Positions 1,295 to 61,180 of a stretch of DNA of 64,000 nt are shown here, piece by piece. Both the position numbers and the translations under genes were made by a program. The notes below the pieces were generated by a model that had not been told where the DNA came from, did not search any database, and saw only the letters and a list, made by a program, of their open reading frames with translations. This DNA is from Candidatus Woesearchaeota archaeon (GTDB lineage Archaea > Nanobdellota > Nanobdellia > Pacearchaeales > GW2011-AR1). Each line of letters opens with the position of its first letter. Position 1 is the first letter of the stretch. The DNA lies in the NCBI GenBank assembly GCA_964578345.1, contig CAZOCP010000003.1:1136-65135 (forward strand), given 5' to 3'.

Positions 1295-1428
1295 ATCGCC
1301 AAACTCTCTGTGTTTGTACCTAGCCTCCTCAAGAATCCTTGATTCTTGATAGCCATCAGAAACTCAAAGAGTTTCTCAGCCTCAAGAACTCTATGTTCTT
1401 GACGGCCGCAGTTTGTTCTTCTGTATCC
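1295..1428. repeat. Hairpin-module repeat, family 1, degraded copy. The ORF 1252..1458(-) lies inside it and is judged spurious
   Basis: Shares >100 nt with 7294-7462 and 57568-57800: atcgccaaac(c/t)ctctgtgtttgtacct.gcctcctcaagaatccttgattcttgatagccatcagaaactcaaagagtttctcagcctcaa. Confidence 0.75.
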
Positions 1429-4271: not shown

Positions 4272-4295
4272 TAAGAAAATTATATTTCACAGCCG

Positions 4296-4420
4296 TCACA
4301 AAACCCTTCGGGTTTTAACCCCGCACTTTAGTGCGGGGCTTGTTCGTGGTTTTGTGACCGCCGGAGAAATCCTCACAAACAACCCCAGACTAAAGTCTAA
4401 GGATTTCTACGAGCGTTAAA
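4296..4420 (+). ncRNA. Candidate structured RNA/element (copy 1 of 2): UUCG-capped hairpin aaaaccc-ttcg-gggtttt, then ccccgcac-ttta-gtgcgggg, within a long closing helix gtcacaaaac...gttttgtgac
   Basis: Near-identical to 38648-38771. Between the copies the third hairpin carries paired substitutions (cctcggac/gtccgagg in copy 2). Intergenic location. Confidence 0.4.
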
Positions 4421-7293: not shown

Positions 7294-7462
7294 ATCGCCA
7301 AACCCTCTGTGTTTGTACCTCGCCTCCTCAAGAATCCTTGATTCTTGATAGCCATCAGAAACTCAAAGAGTTTCTCAGCCTCAAAAATCCATAAAAGATT
7401 TTTGACCCGCTCAGGAATCAAAGATTTCTGACGTAAAAGCCGAGTTTTGTTTTCTGTATCAA
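7294..7462. repeat. Hairpin-module repeat, family 1 copy B. The ORF 7227..7421(-) lies inside it and is judged spurious
   Basis: Modules caagaatc-ctt-gattcttg, gaaactc-aaa-gagtttc, caaaaatc-cataaaa-gatttttg, tcaggaatc-aaa-gatttctga. Confidence 0.75.
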
Positions 7463-7622: not shown

Positions 7623-7955
7623 ATGAGAGAAATACTGGATAATGCTCATGAATTTCTAGAATCTACAGAAGACAATATAAAAAAAGAAAGATGGAATGCC
7701 GCAGTCTCCGACTTCTTTAAAGCAATCGCTGCTTTCTGTGATTATCTGATATACAAAGAAATAAAAAGACTTCCTAAAAAGCATAGCGAACGTTTTAGTC
7801 TATTGGAAAAATATTTTAATAATGTCTACCAGAAAGTCACTGAATTATTCAAAAAATATAGAGAATCATATAATTTAAGACTCAAAAAGGAGGATGCTTT
7901 AAAATCGAGAGCATATGCATATGAACTCAGAGACTTTATTAAGAATAAAGAATAG
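7623..7955 (+). CDS. HEPN-domain protein (toxin-like partner of the adjacent nucleotidyltransferase)
   Basis: Helical protein with R-x4-H motif RLPKKH. Overlaps the downstream MNT gene by 41 nt. Confidence 0.5.
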   Translation: MREILDNAHEFLESTEDNIKKERWNAAVSDFFKAIAAFCDYLIYKEIKRLPKKHSERFSLLEKYFNNVYQKVTELFKKYRESYNLRLKKEDALKSRAYAYELRDFIKNKE

Positions 7956-8448
7956 ATTAAAAAAATTCCTAAAAGATAAAGAGATCTTAGATATTATATT
8001 ATTTGGTTCTGTAATTAAAGGCAAATATCTACCGAGAGATATAGATCTAGCTTTTATAGCTAATAAAGAAATTAAACCGGAAATAGAGGGATTTCATATA
8101 AGCTTAATTAAACCGGAAGAATTCTTTACTGACCAGCCTTCAATAACGAACACTGTATTGAGAGAAGGTTTTAGCTTGAGAAAAAATGCTTTTTTTGTTG
8201 AAGGACTAAAATTCAAAAATAGGGTGCTCTTTACTTATAAATTAAATGACAAGAGGTTATCAGAAAAAGTTAAAATAGTTAATATCTTGCGTGGAAAGAA
8301 TAAAGAAAAAGGAATTGTTGAAGAATATGGCGGAAGATGGCTGGTAAACCAGGCATTTACTGTCCCAATAACTACGGAGCACATAATTGAATCTCTGCTT
8401 ATAAATCTAAAAATAAAATACTCAAAATCATATATATTAATACATTAA
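7915..8448 (+). CDS. Minimal nucleotidyltransferase (MNT, Pol-beta superfamily)
   Basis: ILFGSVIKGKYLPRDIDLAF, the GS-x9-13-DxD NTase signature. Confidence 0.65.
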   Translation: MHMNSETLLRIKNRLKKFLKDKEILDIILFGSVIKGKYLPRDIDLAFIANKEIKPEIEGFHISLIKPEEFFTDQPSITNTVLREGFSLRKNAFFVEGLKFKNRVLFTYKLNDKRLSEKVKIVNILRGKNKEKGIVEEYGGRWLVNQAFTVPITTEHIIESLLINLKIKYSKSYILIH

Positions 8449-10399: not shown

Positions 10400-11212
10400 T
10401 TATTTCTTAAAAAAAATAGACCTTATCCCAGACTCATACTCATCTCTCGCTGCTTCTGAAACATATCTTCTTGAAAACTCTAGGACTTCTGCTAAAGATA
10501 GTGCAGAAATGCTAACTTCTGCTCCAGAAATTCTTTGCGAAGTGCCTTCAGCAGTTCTCAACACCCCATAAGCCGCCTCGTCTTTATCCAAGCCCAACCA
10601 ACCACAATGTAGAACACGATAATGGCCAAACCACAGGTAATTAAAAATTACTTGGCTATTTGAATCTTCGGGAAGATTCTCGAATTCTATTGTTCCTTTA
10701 GTGAATCTATCAAAGTAAGGCTTAGTTTGTTTAGTGAATTCATCAAAGTAAGGCTCAGTTTGCTTTCTAAAGATGAACTGAGATTCAGGCATTTCAGGAG
10801 TTAAAATAAAACATCCTCTTTGTGAAACAATAAGTGCACTTCTGTCTTCAGGAGCCATAGATTCTTGGCTTTTTGCAAGCGCTTCGGCTGCTTCATAAAC
10901 ATCTCTGTTTGTCTCAAAATGCCTTTTGCTTGCATAAGCTCTAACAGCAACAGGAGCCATTAAAGGATTCATCAAGATAGAGTCTCTAACTAAAATAGTT
11001 TTTTTGCCCTTTAGTGCGATAGGTGCCATGCTTGTTCTTGAGTAATCTTTAGAAACACCAGCTAATCGTATCTGAGCAACTTCATCAGGAGCAGCAAGTG
11101 TATGAATGCCTTTATCTGCAAAAGCTCGCAATTGCTTATCTAAAGGCGCAGCTACACGATAAATATCTCCCAAGCCTTCTACGGTTCCTATCTTTTGTGC
11201 TTCATATGTCAT
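10400..11212 (-). CDS. Conserved hypothetical protein, copy 1 of a three-member, compositionally GC-richer paralog family (see 32036..32824 and 60282..60950)
   Basis: N-terminal ~130 aa and last ~57 aa are near-identical to copy 2 at protein and DNA level (last ~170 nt identical). ~100 bp of upstream region is also conserved. Confidence 0.6.
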   Translation of the reverse strand: MTYEAQKIGTVEGLGDIYRVAAPLDKQLRAFADKGIHTLAAPDEVAQIRLAGVSKDYSRTSMAPIALKGKKTILVRDSILMNPLMAPVAVRAYASKRHFETNRDVYEAAEALAKSQESMAPEDRSALIVSQRGCFILTPEMPESQFIFRKQTEPYFDEFTKQTKPYFDRFTKGTIEFENLPEDSNSQVIFNYLWFGHYRVLHCGWLGLDKDEAAYGVLRTAEGTSQRISGAEVSISALSLAEVLEFSRRYVSEAARDEYESGIRSIFFKK

Positions 11213-11411
11213 GCTTTTCTCAAGAATAAAAGGTATTTAAACTTTTCTATTTGTTACTATTTAGAAATTAATTTAGAGTTAAAAACCCTGGGGTTTTGTA
11301 AATTTAATTTCTTCTCAATCCATTCAAAGTTCCGGAAACTTTCAAGAATTGTTTTTTTGCAAACTCCTGACTTTAGTTCGTGAGAAAGCAAAAACAATTC
11401 TTAGCACCACC

Positions 11412-11969: not shown

Positions 11970-12307
11970 GGCCTAATGGGCAAAACAAACTTTATATCTC
12001 TTTCTAAAAAAGATTTTTTTGATGTCAGAAATGCGGTACAAACCGCGGCTTTAGGGCACTGTATTCCTGAGTATCCCAACGTCCCAAACAAACCTCTGCT
12101 TTTAAGTAGAGTTATAACAAAAGGACTTTTTGATGCCAAAGAACTTGATGAAAAAAACACCTTTTAAGATGCGCTTATTTTTTTAATCATTAAAAACCCC
12201 AAAGTCGCTGAAAGCGAGACTATCTATTTTCCGAAGGAAAATCAAGCGCGCTTCCTCTGTGCAAAGAAGGTAACAACAATCACAATTGAGTTGAACTGCT
12301 AATTATC

Positions 12308-17339: not shown

Positions 17340-17530
17340 AAATCCTGAGTTGTCAAGAACCCACCACTAAAGTGGCGGGCGTGTTAGGGTTCTTGAGCAC
17401 ACGAGATTTGTGTTTGCTTACCCACGAACTGAAGTAGGGGGATTGCGCAAACACAAATGCTCGATGTTTCAAGTCAATTTCATTTAATCGTTCAGGTTAA
17501 GCGAAGTTTCAGCACAATAAATTTATTAAG
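17340..17530. repeat. GC-richer non-coding repeat unit (ctcgag/ttaatcgttcagg...aagcgaagttt family)
   Basis: Shares ttaatcgttcagg(t/c)taagcgaagttt(c/t)ag(c/g)cac with 18965-19005, and ctcgag-rich segments with 18920-18990 and 20740-20800. Confidence 0.5.
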
Positions 17531-22316: not shown

Positions 22317-22501
22317 ACTTAAATTCCATTATTAAAAGAATATACTAGAATAATCATAAACCATCATATTGCTCAACTTAATTTTAATCTTTAATAAACA
22401 TCATAAGTATAGAAAAAATCAGGCGATTTAATCTGACTATGTTCTCTAACCTTCTAGGAGTTATTATATAATCAGAACTATAACTACAATATCAAAAAAA
22501 C

Positions 22502-22888
22502 TTTGCGTTTTACCTCGGCTTTTAAGCCGAGGTTTGTTTGGTTTTTTGGATGCAGAAAAATCCCTGTGATTTTTCTGAACAGAGAATTTCTATCTGAAAT
22601 TCTCTTGTGCTCAAGAATTCATCTGCACACTGAAGTGTGCAGTTTTCTTCTAGAATTCTTGACATCAAAAAAACGATGTGCCACCTCGCCTTAAAAGGCG
22701 AGGTTTGTGATAGGCACTCGTTTCATCAAGGACGAAGTCCTTGAGTGTCATCGAGAATCGGAGATTCTCGAGATTTGGATGCTCAGGAATGCAGCGCCCT
22801 AAAGCCTCAAGAACGAAGTTCTTGATGGCCGTCAAGGATACTCAATCCTTGAGGGGCGCGGTTTTCACCGCATTCTTGACATAAAAAA
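22502..22888. repeat. Tandem pair of family-2 hairpin-module repeats (array of ~10 perfect short hairpins). The ORF 22503..22694 is judged spurious
   Basis: cctcggct-ttta-agccgagg, cagaaaaatc-cctgt-gatttttctg, agagaatttc-tatct-gaaattctct, tgcacact-gaa-gtgtgcag, cctcgcc-ttaaaa-ggcgagg, caaggac-gaa-gtccttg, tcgagaatc-gga-gattctcga, caagaac-gaa-gttcttg. Both units end in cttgacat(c/a)aaaaa. Confidence 0.8.
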
Positions 22889-31895: not shown

Positions 31896-32006
31896 ACTCT
31901 TTTTATGACTCTAAAGTTTTTAAACTCTTTCTTTGCATTTTATGGTCTAAATCACAAAACCCCGGGGTTTTTAACTTTAATTTCTAAATAGTAACAAATA
32001 GAAAGG

Positions 32007-32014
32007 TTTAAATA
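32007..32014 (+). promoter_or_regulatory. TATA box (tttaaata) of the paralog-family gene, ~26 bp upstream of the ATG (leaderless-type spacing)
   Basis: Conserved upstream of copy 1 (reverse strand ~11235) and partly upstream of copy 3 (tttaaatacctcttattc). Confidence 0.4.
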
Positions 32015-32035
32015 TCTCTTATTCTCAAAAAAAGC

Positions 32036-32824
32036 ATGACATATGAAGCACAAAAGATAGGAACGGTAGAAGGCTTGGGAGATATTTACTATGTAGCTGC
32101 GCCTTTAGATGAGCAATTGCGAGCTTTTGCAGATAAAGGCATTCATACACTTGCTGCTCCTGATGAAGTTGCTCAAATATATTTAGCTGGTGTTTCTGAA
32201 GATTACTCAAGAACAAGCATGGTATTTATTGTACTAAAGGGCGGAAAAACTATTTTAGTTAGAGACTCTATTTTGATGGCTCCTTTAATGGCTTTTGCTG
32301 CTGTTAGAGATCATGCAAGTGGAAGGTATTTTGAGACAAGTAAGGGGGTTTATGAGGCAGCTGAAGCGCTCGCAAGAAGCCAAGAATCTATGGCTCCTGA
32401 AGACAGAAGCACACTTATTGTTTCACGAGAGGAAGATTTGACTTTAACTCCTGAAATGCCTGAATCTCAGTTCATCTTTAGAAAGCAAACTAAGCCTTAC
32501 TTTGATAAATTCAATAAAAAAGCAATAAATTTCTATAATCCTCACGGATATTCAAATAGTCGGGCAATTATTAATTACATGTGGTTTGGCTCTCCTCCGA
32601 ACAATCGTGATCTAGATTGTAGTCTCTTGGGCTTGGACAAAAAAAGAGCGGCTTATGGGGTGTTGAGAACTGCTGAAGGCACTTCGCAAAGAATTTCTGG
32701 AGCAGAAGTTAGCATTTCTGCACTATCTTTAGCAGAAGTCCTAGAGTTTTCAAGAAGATATGTTTCAGAAGCAGCGAGAGATGAGTATGAGTCTGGGATA
32801 AGGTCTATTTTTTTTAAGAAATAA
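32036..32824 (+). CDS. Conserved hypothetical protein, copy 2 of the three-member paralog family
   Basis: MTYEAQKIGTVEGLGDIY.VAAPLD.QLRAFADKGIHTLAAPDEVAQI... shared with copies 1 and 3. Its stop lies 11 nt from the cdc48 stop (convergent). Confidence 0.6.
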   Translation: MTYEAQKIGTVEGLGDIYYVAAPLDEQLRAFADKGIHTLAAPDEVAQIYLAGVSEDYSRTSMVFIVLKGGKTILVRDSILMAPLMAFAAVRDHASGRYFETSKGVYEAAEALARSQESMAPEDRSTLIVSREEDLTLTPEMPESQFIFRKQTKPYFDKFNKKAINFYNPHGYSNSRAIINYMWFGSPPNNRDLDCSLLGLDKKRAAYGVLRTAEGTSQRISGAEVSISALSLAEVLEFSRRYVSEAARDEYESGIRSIFFKK

Positions 32825-38436: not shown

Positions 38437-38507
38437 GCGCCGTTAGTATAGTGGCAGTATTCAAGCTTCCCAAGCTTGCCGCGCGGGTTCGATTCCCGCA
38501 CGGCGCA
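38437..38507 (+). tRNA. tRNA-Gly (anticodon CCC)
   Basis: GCGCCGT...CAAGC TTCCCAA GCTTG ... GCGGG TTCGATT CCCGC ACGGCGC A. Perfect acceptor and anticodon stems. No encoded CCA. Confidence 0.8.
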
Positions 38508-38647
38508 TTGATAATTGTGCGGGAAGAATTCACTTTGTACTCGTCAGAGTCAAAAGTTCCCAAGGAGCTTGCTCTGCGTGGACCGCACGGCGCATGACTA
38601 AGGCGCATAGCTCAGAGCTTGGTTTGTATGAATCGCGCAGCGTATCT

Positions 38648-38771
38648 GTCACAAAACCCTTCGGGTTTAACCCCGCACTAAAGTATGGGGTTTGTTCGTG
38701 GTTTTGTGACCGCCGGAGAAATCCTCACAAACAACCTCGGACTAAAGTCCGAGGATTTCTACGAGCGTTAA
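38648..38771 (+). ncRNA. Candidate structured RNA/element, copy 2 of the ~125-nt UUCG-hairpin element. The ORF 38594..38800 is judged spurious
   Basis: Near-identical to 4296-4420. Copy-2-specific cctcggac-taaa-gtccgagg perfect hairpin. Confidence 0.4.
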
Positions 38772-40671: not shown

Positions 40672-40796
40672 GGCCTCGTAGCTCAGCCCGGTTAGAGTAC
40701 TTGGCTCTTACAAATAGAAAGTTTCTAGGAGCACTAGAAAACTGATTGAAGTTTGTAGAAACCAAGGTGTCGGGGGTTCAAATCCCCTCGAGGCCA
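40672..40796 (+). tRNA. tRNA-Lys (anticodon CUU) with ~50-nt intron at 37/38
   Basis: GGCCTCG TA GCTC AGCCCGGTTA GAGT A CTTGG CTCTTA[intron 40711-40760]A CCAAG GTGTC GGGGG TTCAAAT CCCCT CGAGGCC A. Confidence 0.75.
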
Positions 40797-41428: not shown

Positions 41429-41535
41429 AAAACAAACATCACCTATTCTAGCTTATACAAAAACATGAGCTATAGAATAAACGTCTGGAATTTTGGAATT
41501 ATTGCTGTGTAAACGAGTTAAAAAAGCATATCAAA

Positions 41536-41597
41536 AAGTCCTTGCGTTTACCACATCTTAAAAGGTGTGGTTTTCGTCAAGCATCTTGACATAATAA
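41536..41597. repeat. Family-2 hairpin-module repeat, short unit
   Basis: ccacatc-ttaaaa-ggtgtgg then gtcaagcatcttgacataataaa terminal motif. Confidence 0.6.
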
Positions 41598-50528: not shown

Positions 50529-53235
50529 AATCAAAAATAAATATATATTATCAGCGATCTGCTTAGGATTTATATTGTCAAATGTTTTTCTAGTTTCAGC
50601 AAATCAGGATAAAATTCTTATGAAAGAATGCAAATACAGTTTTAATGATGAAAATTTCAGATCCTGGAGTTCTCAAGATAACAAGGGAGTTTTCTTAAGC
50701 ATAACAAATAATAATCTAAATCATAAAGAAGAAGCAAATTATGTTTATACAAGCCAACAGCCGCCCAGAAACTACAAGACATATGATTATAACATAAAAC
50801 AGCAGATAGAAAGAGGAATATCAAAAATACCTGAATTAAAGGTCATAAATAATCAGCCAAACATAGTATATATTGAATGTCAATATCGTACTGAATCCTC
50901 TTTTCTAATGACTCTATTTTCCGCAGCCTGCGCTGAATGTGGAAATTCACCAGGTCTAAGATTAACGCACGATTTTGATTTAGCAGGACAAGTAAGAATA
51001 CAAGATTCATATGCAAGCAAATACATTTATAAAACTTCAGCAGAATATCAAAGCCCATACTCATACTATAATCAAAAACAGCAAGTCATTCCATTAGATG
51101 AAATCTATGAAGTTAATGGAATAGAAAAGAAAGGAATAGATTTCTTAAAGCAAACGCTTCCTAAAGATTCAGAAATCACTGTTAAATCAAAAATTGATAT
51201 ATCAAAACTTGCAAGTGGAATATTAGGAATTTCTAATTCCCATGCTGATAATGGAGGAGTTTCTTTAATATCAAATAGGCCCGGCTCATCTTTATGGACA
51301 GCATACATTTATATTAATTCAGAAAAAAATATTGAAGACATTCTTCTTCCAGATAAAAAAATAGTTTTATTTTCTAGAAAAAGAATAATAGAAGGAAGAG
51401 AAGACATAAAACAAAACTTCGGATGTCAGATAGGAACTTCACAATGTATAGATACCAAAATAGGAGACGAAATAAAAGCAGTTTACACTTATTATAACCC
51501 CTTCAATACCCAATTAACAAACATAAAAATTACGCATGTTTTTGCCTTTGATCCTTCAGGCACAGGCATAGCAGAATTAAGTATCGGCGAGCCAAAAGTC
51601 ATAAGATTCTTAAACAAAAAAGAATTTATAAATCTAATTTTCGCTCCTCAAGGAGAAATTAACTTAGAGCATTCAACAAAAATATCAGGATCGGTTTCTA
51701 ATCCTACAACAACCGATGACATATTATACGCACATAGAATCAGCTCGAATACTGCTATAGAAAGAGCAGAGGGTTTAAAAGTATTAGATTGGAAAGCCTT
51801 AGGCGGAGATGATAAAAGCTACTTCTATTTTGGAAAGCTAGAACTGGAGCCAGCTCTTAATTCTCTTAGAGCCCCAGTCATAAAAATAAAGGTAGAACTG
51901 CCAGTTTTAACAAATAGAGACAATAGTCAATCTATAAATGAAAATGAATTTGACATTGAAGTTGATATATATAAAAAAACAGGAAATAGAAGAGAACTAG
52001 AAATACAAGAGTTCATCCCTTTAAATGAAGAGTCTATTTTATATGATAATTTTCCTTTAAAGTCAAAAGACAAGCCAGCAACTTTCAGCTATGAACTGCC
52101 GATTGCAATACAAGCAGAAAATAACAATCAAAATGAAGAGTTTGAATATTCTGTAGAAATGTATAGTAGAAAGGCAATGAACAATGAACCATATGCAGGA
52201 AAAAGAATTGGAACGCTAACAACTAAACCTACAATTAATCCTGGAAAAATATTTTATGCTGATAATACAGTATTCGATTTGTATTATCGATATCCCTCAA
52301 AAATTAATGATTTAAGTTTGTTTAACCCGGATTTTTCGAAAAAGCACAATATAATTCTTAAAATAGCAAATATCAAATCAGAAAAAGATAAATTAGATAA
52401 ATTTAACATTGTAATAAAAGATAAAGATGGCAATGAAATCTTAAAAGAAAGACTTTCATCTGAATTAAACAATCGGGAAATATTTAATATAGTTCTAAGT
52501 CCATTAGAAGTCAAAGAACTAAAAATAGAAATAATACGTCTTCAAGATAAATGGCCTGCTGATGAAGATAAAGAAGTAACTTTTGATATATCTGCGGCAA
52601 TTGATCAAGAGCAAGAACCTAAATCAATTATAAATTTTAAAGTTATTGTCCATAAATTTGTACAATGTTCAGAGATAGAAGAAATAGATGCATCTAAAAG
52701 ACCAAATTCTTGTTTAAGGAATACATTAACATGTTATTGGAACTATGTACCAACAAGTTCTTCTATATACGAAACCTCTCCTCTTGGAAAGATAGAAGAT
52801 GGTGAATGCAGAGAATGCGAGGAATTAGAAGGCAACGGAAAATATTGCTCTAATTACAACAATGATTTGAGCTGTAATGAAGACCCATGTAATTTAGTTC
52901 CTGAAGGATATGAAAAATGTGAATGGAATAATGACCTATATAAATGCGTAGCCGTAAAAGCTCCATGCAAGTACTCAATCAGTAACACATGCACTTCACA
53001 GCAAAAACAAGGTATACTTACTTTCACTCCTATAAGCCAGACAGCAGACTGCAAGATAATAACAAAGCAAGTTCCATGTGCGGGCTATATCGAGCTTCCA
53101 TTTTTTTCAGAATTACAGATATTATTATCAATATTTCTAATCCTGCTTTTTTATTCAATTTTCTGCACTAAAAAGCAAAGCATTAAAAAAGCATATATCT
53201 CATCATCAAAAAGACGATGTGCCGCCACGGCTTAA
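50518..53235 (+). CDS. Large (905 aa) surface protein with signal peptide, Cys-rich C-terminal region and C-terminal TM anchor. 3' end runs into a hairpin repeat, so the true stop is uncertain
   Basis: Signal MKLKIKNKYILSAICLGFILSNVFLVSA. 24 Cys in the last ~200 aa. LQILLSIFLILLFYSIF anchor. Confidence 0.55.
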   Translation: MKLKIKNKYILSAICLGFILSNVFLVSANQDKILMKECKYSFNDENFRSWSSQDNKGVFLSITNNNLNHKEEANYVYTSQQPPRNYKTYDYNIKQQIERGISKIPELKVINNQPNIVYIECQYRTESSFLMTLFSAACAECGNSPGLRLTHDFDLAGQVRIQDSYASKYIYKTSAEYQSPYSYYNQKQQVIPLDEIYEVNGIEKKGIDFLKQTLPKDSEITVKSKIDISKLASGILGISNSHADNGGVSLISNRPGSSLWTAYIYINSEKNIEDILLPDKKIVLFSRKRIIEGREDIKQNFGCQIGTSQCIDTKIGDEIKAVYTYYNPFNTQLTNIKITHVFAFDPSGTGIAELSIGEPKVIRFLNKKEFINLIFAPQGEINLEHSTKISGSVSNPTTTDDILYAHRISSNTAIERAEGLKVLDWKALGGDDKSYFYFGKLELEPALNSLRAPVIKIKVELPVLTNRDNSQSINENEFDIEVDIYKKTGNRRELEIQEFIPLNEESILYDNFPLKSKDKPATFSYELPIAIQAENNNQNEEFEYSVEMYSRKAMNNEPYAGKRIGTLTTKPTINPGKIFYADNTVFDLYYRYPSKINDLSLFNPDFSKKHNIILKIANIKSEKDKLDKFNIVIKDKDGNEILKERLSSELNNREIFNIVLSPLEVKELKIEIIRLQDKWPADEDKEVTFDISAAIDQEQEPKSIINFKVIVHKFVQCSEIEEIDASKRPNSCLRNTLTCYWNYVPTSSSIYETSPLGKIEDGECRECEELEGNGKYCSNYNNDLSCNEDPCNLVPEGYEKCEWNNDLYKCVAVKAPCKYSISNTCTSQQKQGILTFTPISQTADCKIITKQVPCAGYIELPFFSELQILLSIFLILLFYSIFCTKKQSIKKAYISSSKRRCAATA

Positions 53236-53377
53236 AACGTCAGGAATCGAAGATTCCTGAGCGCATCAAAAATCCATAAAAGATTTTTGACGGCCGTGGT
53301 TTGAAAAGGCACTCGTGTTTTGGATGCTCAAGGAACAACTCCATCCTTTAGAAAGGAGTTGTTCCTTGACATAAAAA
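53212..53377. repeat. Family-2 hairpin-module repeat, nested form, ending 2 nt before tRNA-Arg
   Basis: ccacggc...gccgtgg encloses tcaggaatc-gaa-gattcctga and caaaaatc-cataaaa-gatttttg. A 15-bp stem caaggaacaactcc/ggagttgttccttg follows, then cttgacataaaaa. Confidence 0.75.
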
Positions 53378-57567: not shown

Positions 57568-57800
57568 ATCACCAAACCCTTCGGGTTTGTACTTCGCCTC
57601 CTCAAGAATCCTTGATTCTTAATGGCCATCAGAAACTCAAAGAGTTTCTCAGCCTCAAAAATCTTTTATGGATTTTTGACAACGCTCAGGAATCAAAGAT
57701 TCCTGACGTAAAAGCCGAGGTTTGCCTGGTGTTTGGCGAGACAGAAGAACAAACTACGCAAATACCTTTGCAGCTTAAAAGCCGCAGTTTGTTCTTCTGC
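57568..57800. repeat. Hairpin-module repeat, family 1, most intact copy (copy C)
   Basis: caaaccc-ttcg-ggtttg, caagaatc-ctt-gattctta, gaaactc-aaa-gagtttc, caaaaatc-ttttatg-gatttttg, tcaggaatc-aaa-gattcctga. Then a 14-bp stem cagaagaacaaact/agtttgttcttctg enclosing two inner hairpins. Confidence 0.8.
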
Positions 57801-57905
57801 ATCAAATAAACAAATATTAGCAATACCCTCTAGATAGTTTGTTATACCTAAAAAGAAGTTACAAGAGAAAGATTTATAAATCTAATTAACTCTTTTCCTA
57901 TTAAT

Positions 57906-60281: not shown

Positions 60282-60950
60282 ATGGAATCTGACTATGAAG
60301 CACTAAAGATAGGAACAGTAAAAGACTTGGGAGATATTTACCAAGTAACTGCGCCTTTAGATAAGCAATTGCGAGCTTTTGCAGATAAAGGCATTCACAC
60401 ACTTGCTGCTCCTGATGAAGTTGCTCAGATACATTTAGCTGGTGTTTCTGAAGATTCCTCAAGAACAAGAATGACATCTATCGTACTAAGGGGCGAAAAA
60501 ACTATTTTAGTTAGAGACTCTATTTCGATGAATCCTTTAATGGCTTCTGCTGCTGTTAGAGATCATGCAAGTGGAAGGTGTTTTGAGACAAGCAGAGATG
60601 TTTATGAAGAAGCCGAAGCACTTGCAAAAAGGCAAGAATCTATAGATCCTGAAGACAGAAGCGCACTTATTGTTTCACAAAGAGGAGGTTTTGTTTTAAC
60701 TCCTAAAATGCCTGAATCTCAGTTCATCTTAAGAAAGCAAACTGAGCCTTACTTTGATAAATTCACTAATGGAACAATGAAATTAGATAATCTTTTCAGA
60801 TATTCAGATAGAAAGGCAATTATTAATTACATGTGGTTTAAGAGAAATTGTAGTCTAGATTGTATTTGGTTGGGCTTGGACAAAGACCGTCCGGCTTATG
60901 GGGTGTTGAGAACTGCTGAAGGCAGCGCAAAAAATACAAGTGCTTCTTAA
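60282..60950 (+). CDS. Conserved hypothetical protein, copy 3 (shortest) of the three-member paralog family
   Basis: Shares KQLRAFADKGIHTLAAPDEVAQIHLAGVSED...ILVRDSI...PESQFI..KQTEPYFD with copies 1 and 2. C-terminus diverges after ...GVLRTAEG. Confidence 0.55.
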   Translation: MESDYEALKIGTVKDLGDIYQVTAPLDKQLRAFADKGIHTLAAPDEVAQIHLAGVSEDSSRTRMTSIVLRGEKTILVRDSISMNPLMASAAVRDHASGRCFETSRDVYEEAEALAKRQESIDPEDRSALIVSQRGGFVLTPKMPESQFILRKQTEPYFDKFTNGTMKLDNLFRYSDRKAIINYMWFKRNCSLDCIWLGLDKDRPAYGVLRTAEGSAKNTSAS

Positions 60951-61089
60951 TTATACAATTATATTCGAAGATTCAATCAAATTATTGAGAGATTAGGCGA
61001 GGTTAAAAAGATGTTAGAAGATATTATTGTTATGCAAAAGAAACCTTAATTAAATACAACATTTGTTTTATCATAAAGTCCTTTTGTTA

Positions 61090-61180
61090 TACCTCGGCTT
61101 TTAAGCCGAGGTTTGTTTGGGACTTTGGGATGCTCAGGAATGCAGCGCCCTAAAGGGCGCTGCATTCCTGACATGATAAA
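61090..61180. repeat. Family-2 hairpin-module repeat, compact ~90-bp unit
   Basis: cctcggct-ttta-agccgagg, then tttgtttgggactttgggatgctc, then caggaatgcagcgccc-taaa-gggcgctgcattcctg, then acatgataaa. Confidence 0.75.

Follow-up and report, generated by a model that had tools for sequence, protein, structure and literature searches.

The spacer between a GT4 gene and a Fic gene in a Candidatus Woesearchaeota archaeon contains family-1 copy C, an element made of nested hairpins. Here we describe family-1 and the larger family of hairpin repeats around it. The window, which is the whole stretch of 64,000 nucleotides that we analyzed, lies within a 71-kb ENA metagenome contig with 33.6% G+C. The organism is a DPANN archaeon without a close sequenced relative in the species collection. 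A search for GatD gave 51 loci in bins of Pacearchaeota, Woesearchaeota, or "Nanoarchaeota," with full-length identities of at most 73%, and the exact family-1 pattern has no match in 185,579 species genomes. (Handles such as L002 refer to sequences from other assemblies.)

The genes around copy C are GatD, GT4 (on the minus strand), Fic, and GatE, as given in a preliminary description of this DNA. The three copies of family-1 in the window are:

57568..57802, plus strand: family-1 copy C, the complete composite unit (same strain in L002; full counterpart in L059)
7294..7462, plus strand: family-1 copy B (from alignment to copies A and C)
1295..1428, plus strand: family-1 copy A, sister of copy B (from alignment to copies B and C)

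Family-1 and its three copies

Copy C starts with ATCACC. Its first hairpin (hairpin 0, at 57573-57589) has a 7-bp stem and is of the UUCG type. Next come the 5' arm of a stem that we call P2 (57591-57598), four mini hairpins with perfect stems of 7-9 bp (57602-57622, 57629-57651, 57655-57679, and 57686-57706), the segment CGTAAAA, and the 3' arm of P2 (GCCGAGGT, at 57714-57721). P2 is followed by a TTG junction, the 3' arm of the lower stem P1 (57727-57739), the hairpin P3 (57742-57799), and a terminal CAT. The 14-bp stem of P3 is formed by CAGAAGAACAAACT (57742-57755) and AGTTTGTTCTTCTG (57786-57799), and it encloses two small hairpins. Reading the sequence, a census of hairpins, and folding all agree with the preliminary description, which had copy C as five hairpins followed by a 14-bp stem around two more. 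When folded as RNA, copy C has a minimum free energy of -87.5 kcal/mol (z = -8.7 compared to dinucleotide shuffles). The complementary strand folds no worse, at -97.1 kcal/mol.

The 5' end of family-1 resembles that of the beta-type units that are described below (100% identity to L009 over 25 nt). Family-1 is a beta-like unit with a cassette of four hairpins in the loop of P2.

Two cores of family-1 (25 nt and 32 nt) have exactly three occurrences each, and shuffles give 0. Because L002, which was assembled from a separate sequencing run (Logan SRR8863434), carries the same copy C, this element is not an assembly artefact. The L002 contig stops precisely where the shared repeat does.

Copies A, B, and C are all on the same strand. 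Aligning them confirmed, almost to the base, that A and B share the 5' part of copy C: across the first 92 nt, the identities are 89/92 for A and B, 85/92 for B and C, and 82/92 for A and C (89-97%). Copy B is collinear with copy C through all four mini hairpins, up to AAAAGCCGAG (138/154 identical). Over this stretch, the copies have just one large difference: the 7-nt loop of mini hairpin 4 is reverse-complemented (TTTTATG in C, CATAAAA in B). Copy B then lacks 68 nt that copy C has between the 15-nt direct repeats AAAAGCCGAGGTTTG (57710) and AAAAGCCGCAGTTTG (57777). This clean deletion takes out the 3' arm of P1 and the 5' half of P3. Copy B does not have "family-2 modules" in place of part of the element, and nothing in this copy is foreign.

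Copy A has the same deletion junction as copy B and has lost one further hairpin. It keeps hairpins 0, 1, and 2 along with the 3' arm of P3. The third hairpin is a variant (TCAAGAAC...GTTCTTGA) with a compensatory change. The remaining arm of P3 is a genuine orphan, as had been noticed, and the matching 5' arm exists only at 57742. Since A and B share diagnostic substitutions (ATCGCC, CTCTGTG, TTGATAGCC, and TGTATC), they are sister copies of one deletion derivative. The flanks of the three copies are unrelated, and the sharp ends ATC...CTGYATC are common to all. Given their unrelated flanks and common ends, the defective copy that gave rise to A and B was copied to a second locus. Copy B derives from a C-like copy in which the 68 nt between the two 15-nt direct repeats were deleted. 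Copy A descends from a B-like copy through copying to another site and the loss of one additional hairpin.

The public gene calls place a 68-amino-acid open reading frame (ORF) over copy A, on the minus strand (1252-1458). Most likely, the repeat has produced a false gene here.

A larger family of nested hairpin units

The preliminary description viewed family-1 as three copies of one once-identical element, which is too narrow. Using the hairpin census, folds, and nhmmer with three type profiles, we found at least 12 related units in the window. They total 1,803 nt, which is 2.8% of the window; of the DNA outside long ORFs, they make up 14%. All of them are intergenic or overlap only the ends of genes. 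Ten are on the plus strand, and the two on the minus strand lie among minus-strand genes. The profiles split the units into three sequence types, which we call alpha, beta, and gamma. (A strict GC-hairpin descriptor was too insensitive as a search tool. All-versus-all clustering of intergenic DNA merged tRNAs and gene ends with the units, and was replaced by the nhmmer profiles.) Besides the copies of family-1, the units are:

4295..4417, plus strand: beta-type unit, GTCACAAAACCCTTCGGGTTTT - P2 - GGTTTTGTGAC - P3 (folding, profile, and covariation alignment)
38648..38769, plus strand: beta-type unit downstream of tRNA-Gly, 88% identical to 4295-4417 and 89-95% identical to L031 994-1164
17351..17467, plus strand: gamma-type unit, TGTCAAGAACC - P2 - GGTTCTTGA GCACA - P3
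11342..11403, minus strand: remnant of a gamma-type P3 between minus-strand genes
12022..12134, minus strand: decayed alpha-type unit between minus-strand genes, with a further fragment just upstream (~12140-12175)
22491..22665, plus strand: alpha-type unit whose domain 1 and P3 are separated by two extra hairpins
22664..22882, plus strand: long alpha-type unit with two-hairpin cassettes in the P1 3' junction and the P3 loop
41530..41592, plus strand: recombined or deleted alpha unit, in which the 3' half of P3 is joined to the 5' end of domain 1
53205..53372, plus strand: alpha-type unit that separates tRNA-Arg from its promoter motif and has a P2 loop with two mini hairpins
61070..61174, plus strand: the simplest alpha-type unit, with a P1-P2 domain and a 17-bp perfect P3 and without inserted hairpins

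The units at 22491-22665 and 22664-22882 form a head-to-tail pair, and the junction CATC is common to both.

The units have a common fold. The 5' arm of the lower stem P1 starts with (Y)ATCA, and its 3' arm ends with GAT(G). Within P1 are a GC-rich hairpin (P2) with an A/T loop and then a conserved TTTG junction. One base after P1, there is a second long hairpin (P3), TCARGAA...TTCYTGA, which is followed by a CAT(AAAA) tail. P3 often has its own GC-rich upper hairpin and a T-rich bulge on the 3' side. The basic module is a TCA...TGA lower stem around a GC-rich hairpin, with a T-rich junction, and a unit is two modules in series (P1/P2 and P3).

Mini hairpins of the form TCARRAAY-loop-RTTYYTGA are found at four places: the P2 loop, the 3' junction of P1, the stretch between the domains, and the loop of P3. 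They look like modules that have lost their interior. Their number varies from 0 to 4 between units; the 5' end, the 3' hairpin, and the tail are common. The mini hairpins occur singly or as fixed cassettes, and each position has its own GC-rich linkers. Some linkers recur in different units and genomes, namely CC-hp-TGGCCG-hp-GG in P3 loops, CA-hp-GTGYCA-hp-GR in the P1 junction, and CG-hpA-GCGCC-hpB-GCC (where hp is a hairpin).

Many related copies exist in other genomes as well. We detected the same three types in roughly 15 of the 51 related Pacearchaeota loci; many 20-kb loci had none. Beta units are present in L031, L009, L035, L016, and L013; gamma units in L006, L029, and L005; and alpha units in L006, L020, L010, L012, and L045. 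The gamma unit at 17351-17467 is 79-83% identical over ~120 nt to units from L006, L029, and L005 that lie in other gene contexts, and domain 1 of the long alpha unit at 22664-22882 is 91% identical to L006 15472-15529.

A metagenome scan with the conserved second hairpin identified 11 further loci. Among the relatives is a full counterpart of copy C, on an unrelated metagenome contig (L059). It has a beta-type 5' end, and its P2 stem holds four hairpins whose order matches that of copy C; other cassettes are present in addition. The cassette hpA-GCACC-hpB-GCC is found in the P2 loops of alpha units (L010 and L012), between the domains of gamma units (L062, L063, L065, and L067), and in the long beta unit of L059. 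So, the cassettes are shared among the types of units, and their positions are conserved.

Across genomes, the units are 79-95% identical, as compared to 60-73% for the GatD protein. This is far above what would be expected for intergenic DNA at that GatD identity. It is comparable to the identity of tRNA-Arg (72-96%). One alpha subtype is 81-91% identical between genomes, as compared to 86% for two copies within the host genome. The preliminary description held that family-1 is a mobile or recently proliferated sequence and not a conserved regulatory site. The first part is borne out, as the unrelated flanks, the sharp ends, the shared deletion, and the turnover at an orthologous spacer (see below) are those of a proliferating and decaying repeat. 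They also support the view that the element does not regulate the GatD/GatE region as a site-specific signal. "Not conserved" is wrong as a general statement, because the element is more conserved across genomes than proteins are.

Turnover, orientation, and competing explanations

Units are present or absent at orthologous sites. The divergent spacer between GT4 and Fic is syntenic in L005 and L012. In the host, it contains copy C on the plus strand; in L005, it contains a gamma unit on the minus strand and other hairpins; and in L012, it contains no unit, despite large arrays of units elsewhere in L012. A second case is tRNA-Arg. In 20 relatives, a promoter motif, (R)ATTAAAAAA(S), is found ~21 nt upstream of this gene. 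In the host, the motif (GCATTAAAAAAGC, at 53181-53193) has been displaced ~185 nt upstream by an inserted alpha unit. Among the 21 genomes compared, only the host has this insertion; L035 has a beta-like hairpin on the opposite strand. Because the alpha unit lies between the promoter and the tRNA, it should form the 5' leader of the pre-tRNA. Also, the units at 12022-12134, 41530-41592, and 11342-11403 are decayed or recombined.

We believe, with moderate confidence, that family-1 belongs, as a composite, to a superfamily of mosaic palindromic repeats that is Pacearchaeota-wide; these repeats would be non-coding and non-autonomous, and similar in kind to REP/BIME and BOX. We propose that these units behave as DNA palindromes, whose arms are kept perfectly complementary and whose loops can flip. 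Both the upkeep of the arms and the flipping of the loops could occur by template switching or recombination within inverted repeats, or by insertion in either orientation. The units would be gained, lost, and reshuffled in intergenic DNA, and they are probably transcribed passively with the neighboring genes.

The competing idea that fares best is that selection acts on an RNA. The units could be the genes or cis-elements of a new modular class of structured RNA that serves as a protein-binding scaffold, a processing signal, or a stabilizer, with a conserved two-domain core and optional peripheral hairpins; the many copies would then be a paralogous RNA family. We consider this unlikely but worth taking seriously. 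We give the same low probability to a broader alternative, in which the units are either a new modular, multi-copy class of DPANN RNA with a two-domain core or a new hairpin-borne mobile element that inserts into the loops of hairpins. Such an element, which is an equally tentative proposal, would have a mechanism without target duplication and without a recognizable transposase. Either an RNA class or a hairpin-inserting element would explain why the units are as conserved between genera as tRNAs are.

Covariation is among the observations that an RNA class would explain. We aligned seven beta units from five genomes and compared 27 pairs to 500 shuffles. In this alignment, 92% of the cells pair, versus 81.5% in shuffles, and 11 of the 27 pairs show compensatory changes, a count that was reached by 1 of the 500 shuffles. 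Shifting the partner by one column halved the pairing. An alignment of four gamma sequences contains five compensatory pairs. Structure is thus conserved beyond what sequence identity explains. The preliminary description named a lack of further copies and of such conservation as what would refute it, and neither holds. An RNA class would also account for the identity of units across genomes (83-95%, versus 60-73% for the GatD protein), for the conserved unpaired motifs and position-specific linkers, for the orientation of units along with genes, and for the alpha unit that starts where the tRNA-Arg transcript should start.

Alternative pairings at the 5' end fit with an RNA class as well. In beta and family-1 units, a 5' segment (CAAAACC; for example, CACAAAACC) can pair with the adjacent GGGTTTT, which gives the UUCG-type hairpin, or with the distal GGTTTTGTG (GGTTTTG). 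The three segments change together between genomes (4296-4360, 38648-38710, 57570-57739, L016, L035, and L009). In these models, the pairings look like a conserved pair of mutually exclusive structures.

On the other hand, several results point to palindromic repeats at the DNA level instead of a selected RNA. First, there is no asymmetry between the strands. The local hairpins are nearly all perfect Watson-Crick stems, and their single internal non-Watson-Crick pairs include 3 G.U and 5 A.C pairs, so there is no strand preference. In the minimum free energy folds of 35 units, G.U accounts for 5.7% of pairs on the gene-sense strand versus 8.5% on the other strand, and the gene-sense strand has the less stable fold in 24 of the 35. 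Second, evolving RNAs typically pass through G.U intermediates, and these are scarce in the beta alignment: 22 cells have changes on both sides, versus 6 with a change on one side. Third, loops are flipped while their stems are unchanged: TTTTATG in copy C versus CATAAAA in copy B and in the hairpin at 53266, and TTTCA in L062 versus TGAAA in L063. Flipped loops fit with recombination or template switching within inverted repeats, or with insertion of modules in either orientation. The decayed and recombined copies, the patchy distribution among relatives, and the different units at one orthologous spacer also argue against an RNA class. Furthermore, in the upstream sequences of 11 gamma units, no TATA box recurs at a constant distance. 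Besides four tRNAs, Rfam 15 had no match at the gathering threshold or at E ≤ 5; the sub-threshold matches on units were to unrelated families (E = 0.16-2.1). We also considered H/ACA and C/D guide RNAs and rejected them by inspecting the folds, which have one-sided internal loops (0-3 nt on the 5' side) and no tandem sheared G.A pairs. The junction sequence of the units is conserved rather than variable.

The orientation of the units bears on whether they are transcribed. In the spacers of tandem genes, 12 units point the same way as the genes and 3 the other way, and all of the informative units in the window are co-oriented, including the two on the minus strand. Alpha units carry runs of A in the gene-sense orientation (ATCAAAAAAAC and CATAAAAAA); a transcript through an oppositely oriented alpha unit would therefore contain T6-T7 tracts. 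T6-T7 tracts are termination signals in archaea. We infer that the units are passively co-transcribed and that the terminating orientation is selected against. A-runs are missing from beta and gamma units, so avoidance of terminators cannot explain all of the bias. We also considered replication strand as an explanation for the orientation, but GC skew merely follows the orientation of the genes and is uninformative.

It seems rather improbable that the units are miniature elements that depend on a transposase, whose autonomous partner would be elsewhere. They could be MITEs (miniature transposable elements with inverted repeats) of DDE insertion sequences (IS), or palindrome-associated transposable elements (PATE) of the IS200/IS605 type, possibly with a TnpB guide-RNA scaffold. 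The modules are bounded by inverted repeats (TCA...TGA), and the units have sharp ends and unrelated flanks. IS200/IS605-type elements depend on subterminal hairpins in single-stranded DNA and make no target duplication, which would fit. In a census of MITEs, a Woesearchaea genome had among the highest densities of any archaeal genomes, at 105 per Mb (PMC11602168). But the called genes of the 71-kb contig include no transposase, TnpA, TnpB, Y1_Tnp, or integrase domain, and we found no matches to the three unit patterns in unit context among viral contigs. (The single match in a viral contig was inside a 1534-amino-acid ORF without unit architecture, and we view it as a chance match.) Also, random transposition would not place cassettes at fixed structural positions with conserved linkers.

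The one transposase that we noticed near units is in L012 (1829-2788). This ORF, of the DDE type (IS240/IS6-like, 31.6 bits), has a DNA methylase gene beside it, and a large array of alpha units is ~1.1 kb away. Its proximity would favor a role in moving the units, but around it there are no inverted repeats or termini that resemble the ends of units.

The preliminary description had suggested looking for target-site duplications. In the flanks of 15 units, we found no consistent target-site duplication and no consensus at the left flank, which is a further argument against transposase-dependent elements. A 14-nt repeat around copy C (AAAGATTTATAAAT) was considered as a target duplication, but it is best explained as two consensus promoters. 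Downstream of copy C is the native operator-like palindrome and promoter that is also seen in L012 and L005, and the upstream AAAGATTTATAAAT is at the right distance to be the promoter of GT4.

The palindrome, TTGTAACT-loop-AGTTACAA, is directly upstream of the Fic promoter AAAGATTTATAAA (57835-57881 in the window, where it is degenerate). It is conserved in several genomes (L012 12500-12540, L005 3010-3060, and L006 12383-12405) and looks like the operator of the Fic gene.

Some other arrangements near units involve duplicated sequence. In L018, a two-hairpin unit just downstream of tRNA-Arg (1703-1840) has a perfect 22-nt direct repeat, TTTGCTTCGCAAAGATTTAATA, on either side. This is the only clear long flanking duplication that we found, and it contains a promoter-like box. 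Two beta units follow tRNA genes with a partial duplicate of the 3' end of the tRNA. In the window (38437-38646), tRNA-Gly is followed by an insert of ~80 nt and a second copy of its last 12 nt (CCGCACGGCGCA, at 38585-38596), as if the T-loop had expanded; next are a tRNA-like 5' fragment (GGCGCATAGCTCAG) and the beta unit. The layout in L009 (17300-17584) is the same: tRNA-Ala, the beta unit, and a duplicate of the 3' ~30 nt of the tRNA, with hairpins in the T-loop. These layouts could be remnants of integration at tRNA genes.

Other mobile systems were considered and rejected. Inspection did not support the end motifs of Helitrons or IS91. A guide-RNA scaffold beside a nuclease was suggested by a 905-amino-acid ORF that ends within the unit at 53205, but this ORF has no Pfam domain. 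Given its N-terminal hydrophobic stretch and its C-terminal hydrophobic tail, the encoded protein looks like a secreted or surface-anchored protein.

We doubt strongly that the units regulate the adjacent genes in cis, for instance as terminators, attenuators, riboswitch-like leaders, or arrays of operators. Most units follow a co-oriented gene at a distance of 10-175 nt, some are placed between a promoter and the gene, and the GC-rich hairpins followed by T-rich tracts resemble terminators. But the T-tracts are only 3-4 nt and are buried in the lower stem, and units occur whether the genes around the spacer are tandem, divergent, or convergent. The genes on either side are unrelated in function (they encode a HerA-like ATPase, HEPN, FEN1, Fic, tRNAs, and surface proteins), and the presence of a unit is not conserved at orthologous sites. 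Because the sequences of the stems vary, a sequence-specific DNA-binding protein is unlikely.

Finally, chance similarity, low complexity, or an assembly artefact has a negligible probability: this is an AT-rich genome, and metagenome assembly can collapse or chimerize repeats, but the cores (3 observed versus 0 expected), the folding z-score, the same sequence in the independent run, and related units in many independent assemblies all argue otherwise.

Several points weigh against palindromic repeats of the REP/BIME/BOX kind, even though we prefer this explanation. The identity of units across genomes (80-95%) is about as high as for tRNA-Arg. Selfish repeats would not usually be so similar, except if they spread horizontally or a conserved protein recognizes them. 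Conservation extends to linkers and to unpaired junction motifs (TTTG after P2, GGATGC, and GACATAA), which suggests specific recognition and could equally mean RNA function. We found no mobilizing enzyme on the 71-kb contig and no target duplication or target motif in the flanks of the units, so mobility is inferred from their distribution only. For the orientations, the numbers are low (12 versus 3), and the ORF calls behind them are crude. And our analysis is based on one 71-kb contig of the host genome and on pieces of 3-21 kb from its relatives.

Known repeat families and neighboring features

As far as our searches show, this family of repeats has not been described in the literature. 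By analogy, the units are most like REP/BIME and BOX, yet they belong to neither family. They are set apart by the nesting of their hairpins, by their host lineage, and by their unusually high conservation between distant genomes.

Like the REP/BIME elements of Escherichia coli and other Proteobacteria, the units are short, non-coding, intergenic palindromes in many copies. Both form mosaics that are joined by a few conserved, position-specific linkers, and the number of units varies by locus. REP/BIME elements are also transcribed with neighboring genes, as we suspect for the units. However, the two are unrelated in sequence. The units lack a 5' tetranucleotide of the GTAG type and instead have ends of the form A|TCA...TGA|CAT, and there is no RAYT (Y1 transposase) among the called genes of the 71-kb contig. 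The hairpins of the units are nested in the loops of larger hairpins and are not just side by side. And the host is a DPANN archaeon, with the same sequence types persisting across genomes at 60-73% GatD identity.

The BOX elements of Streptococcus pneumoniae (boxA-boxB(n)-boxC) have a conserved 5' module, variable internal hairpins, and a conserved 3' module, as do the units. The resemblance is by analogy and not by sequence homology, and BOX is confined to one bacterial species group. The units share with BOX, RUP, and Correia-type elements very stable predicted folds, a ~3% share of the sequence, and common truncated derivatives (compare copies A and B). Unlike Correia and RUP elements, they have no terminal inverted repeats with a TA duplication.

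The MITEs and PATE of archaea and cyanobacteria are also small, non-coding, multi-copy, and patchy, with inverted-repeat or hairpin ends, and PATE lack a target duplication. Unlike classical MITEs, the units have no target duplication, nor is there a partner IS on the 71-kb contig. In contrast to IS200/IS605 elements, there is no conserved target tetra- or pentanucleotide at the left end, and the modules are at conserved structural positions. The attC sites of integrons resemble the units in being imperfect palindromes that are conserved in structure, variable in sequence, downstream of genes, and co-oriented with them. But the units lack the core sites RYYYAAC / GTTRRRY (their stems are TCARRAAY / RTTYYTGA), their neighbors are housekeeping genes (tRNA synthetases, GatD/E, and similar) instead of cassette arrays, and there is no integrase on the contig.

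The genomes of DPANN archaea are very small and streamlined. This one still gives ~3% of the window, and about one-seventh of its non-coding DNA, to nested hairpin repeats. If the units are selfish, then they are a REP/BOX-like system in an archaeal lineage for which, as far as our literature searches show, none has been characterized. If they are functional RNAs, then they would be a new and abundant class. The units also have practical consequences. They break metagenome assemblies (L002 ends inside copy C), and they generate false gene calls, such as the ORF over copy A. Units between promoters and genes, as at tRNA-Arg, matter for annotation and for interpreting expression in uncultured organisms.

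Other features of the window are listed here. Downstream of copy B, at 7623-8448, is a pair of overlapping genes with weak matches to HEPN and to a nucleotidyltransferase domain (Polbeta). A HEPN gene paired with an MNT (nucleotidyltransferase) gene is a usual toxin-antitoxin arrangement. At 480-825, within a minus-strand gene for a Laminin_G_3 surface protein, there are tandem or near-tandem repeats of 24-34 nt (CCATAAGGTTGAGTTGTTGTTTCG...).

Three paralogous genes (10400-11212 on the minus strand, 32036-32824, and 60282-60950) start with ATGACATATGAAG, and two of the copies are 92% identical over 300 nt. The genes at 10400-11212 and 32036-32824 also share an upstream region (11213-11310 on the minus strand and 31950-32035 on the plus strand), with a CAAAACCCCGGGGTTTT hairpin and a TTTAAATA box. 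This upstream region is conserved in L027, L028, L006, L044, and L037.

Rfam identified a 125-nt tRNA with an intron of ~50 nt at 40672-40796, which ARAGORN missed. The tRNA-Arg(TCG) gene is free of introns in the window and is interrupted by ~60-80 nt in L018 (1571-1702) and L022 (1474-1623).

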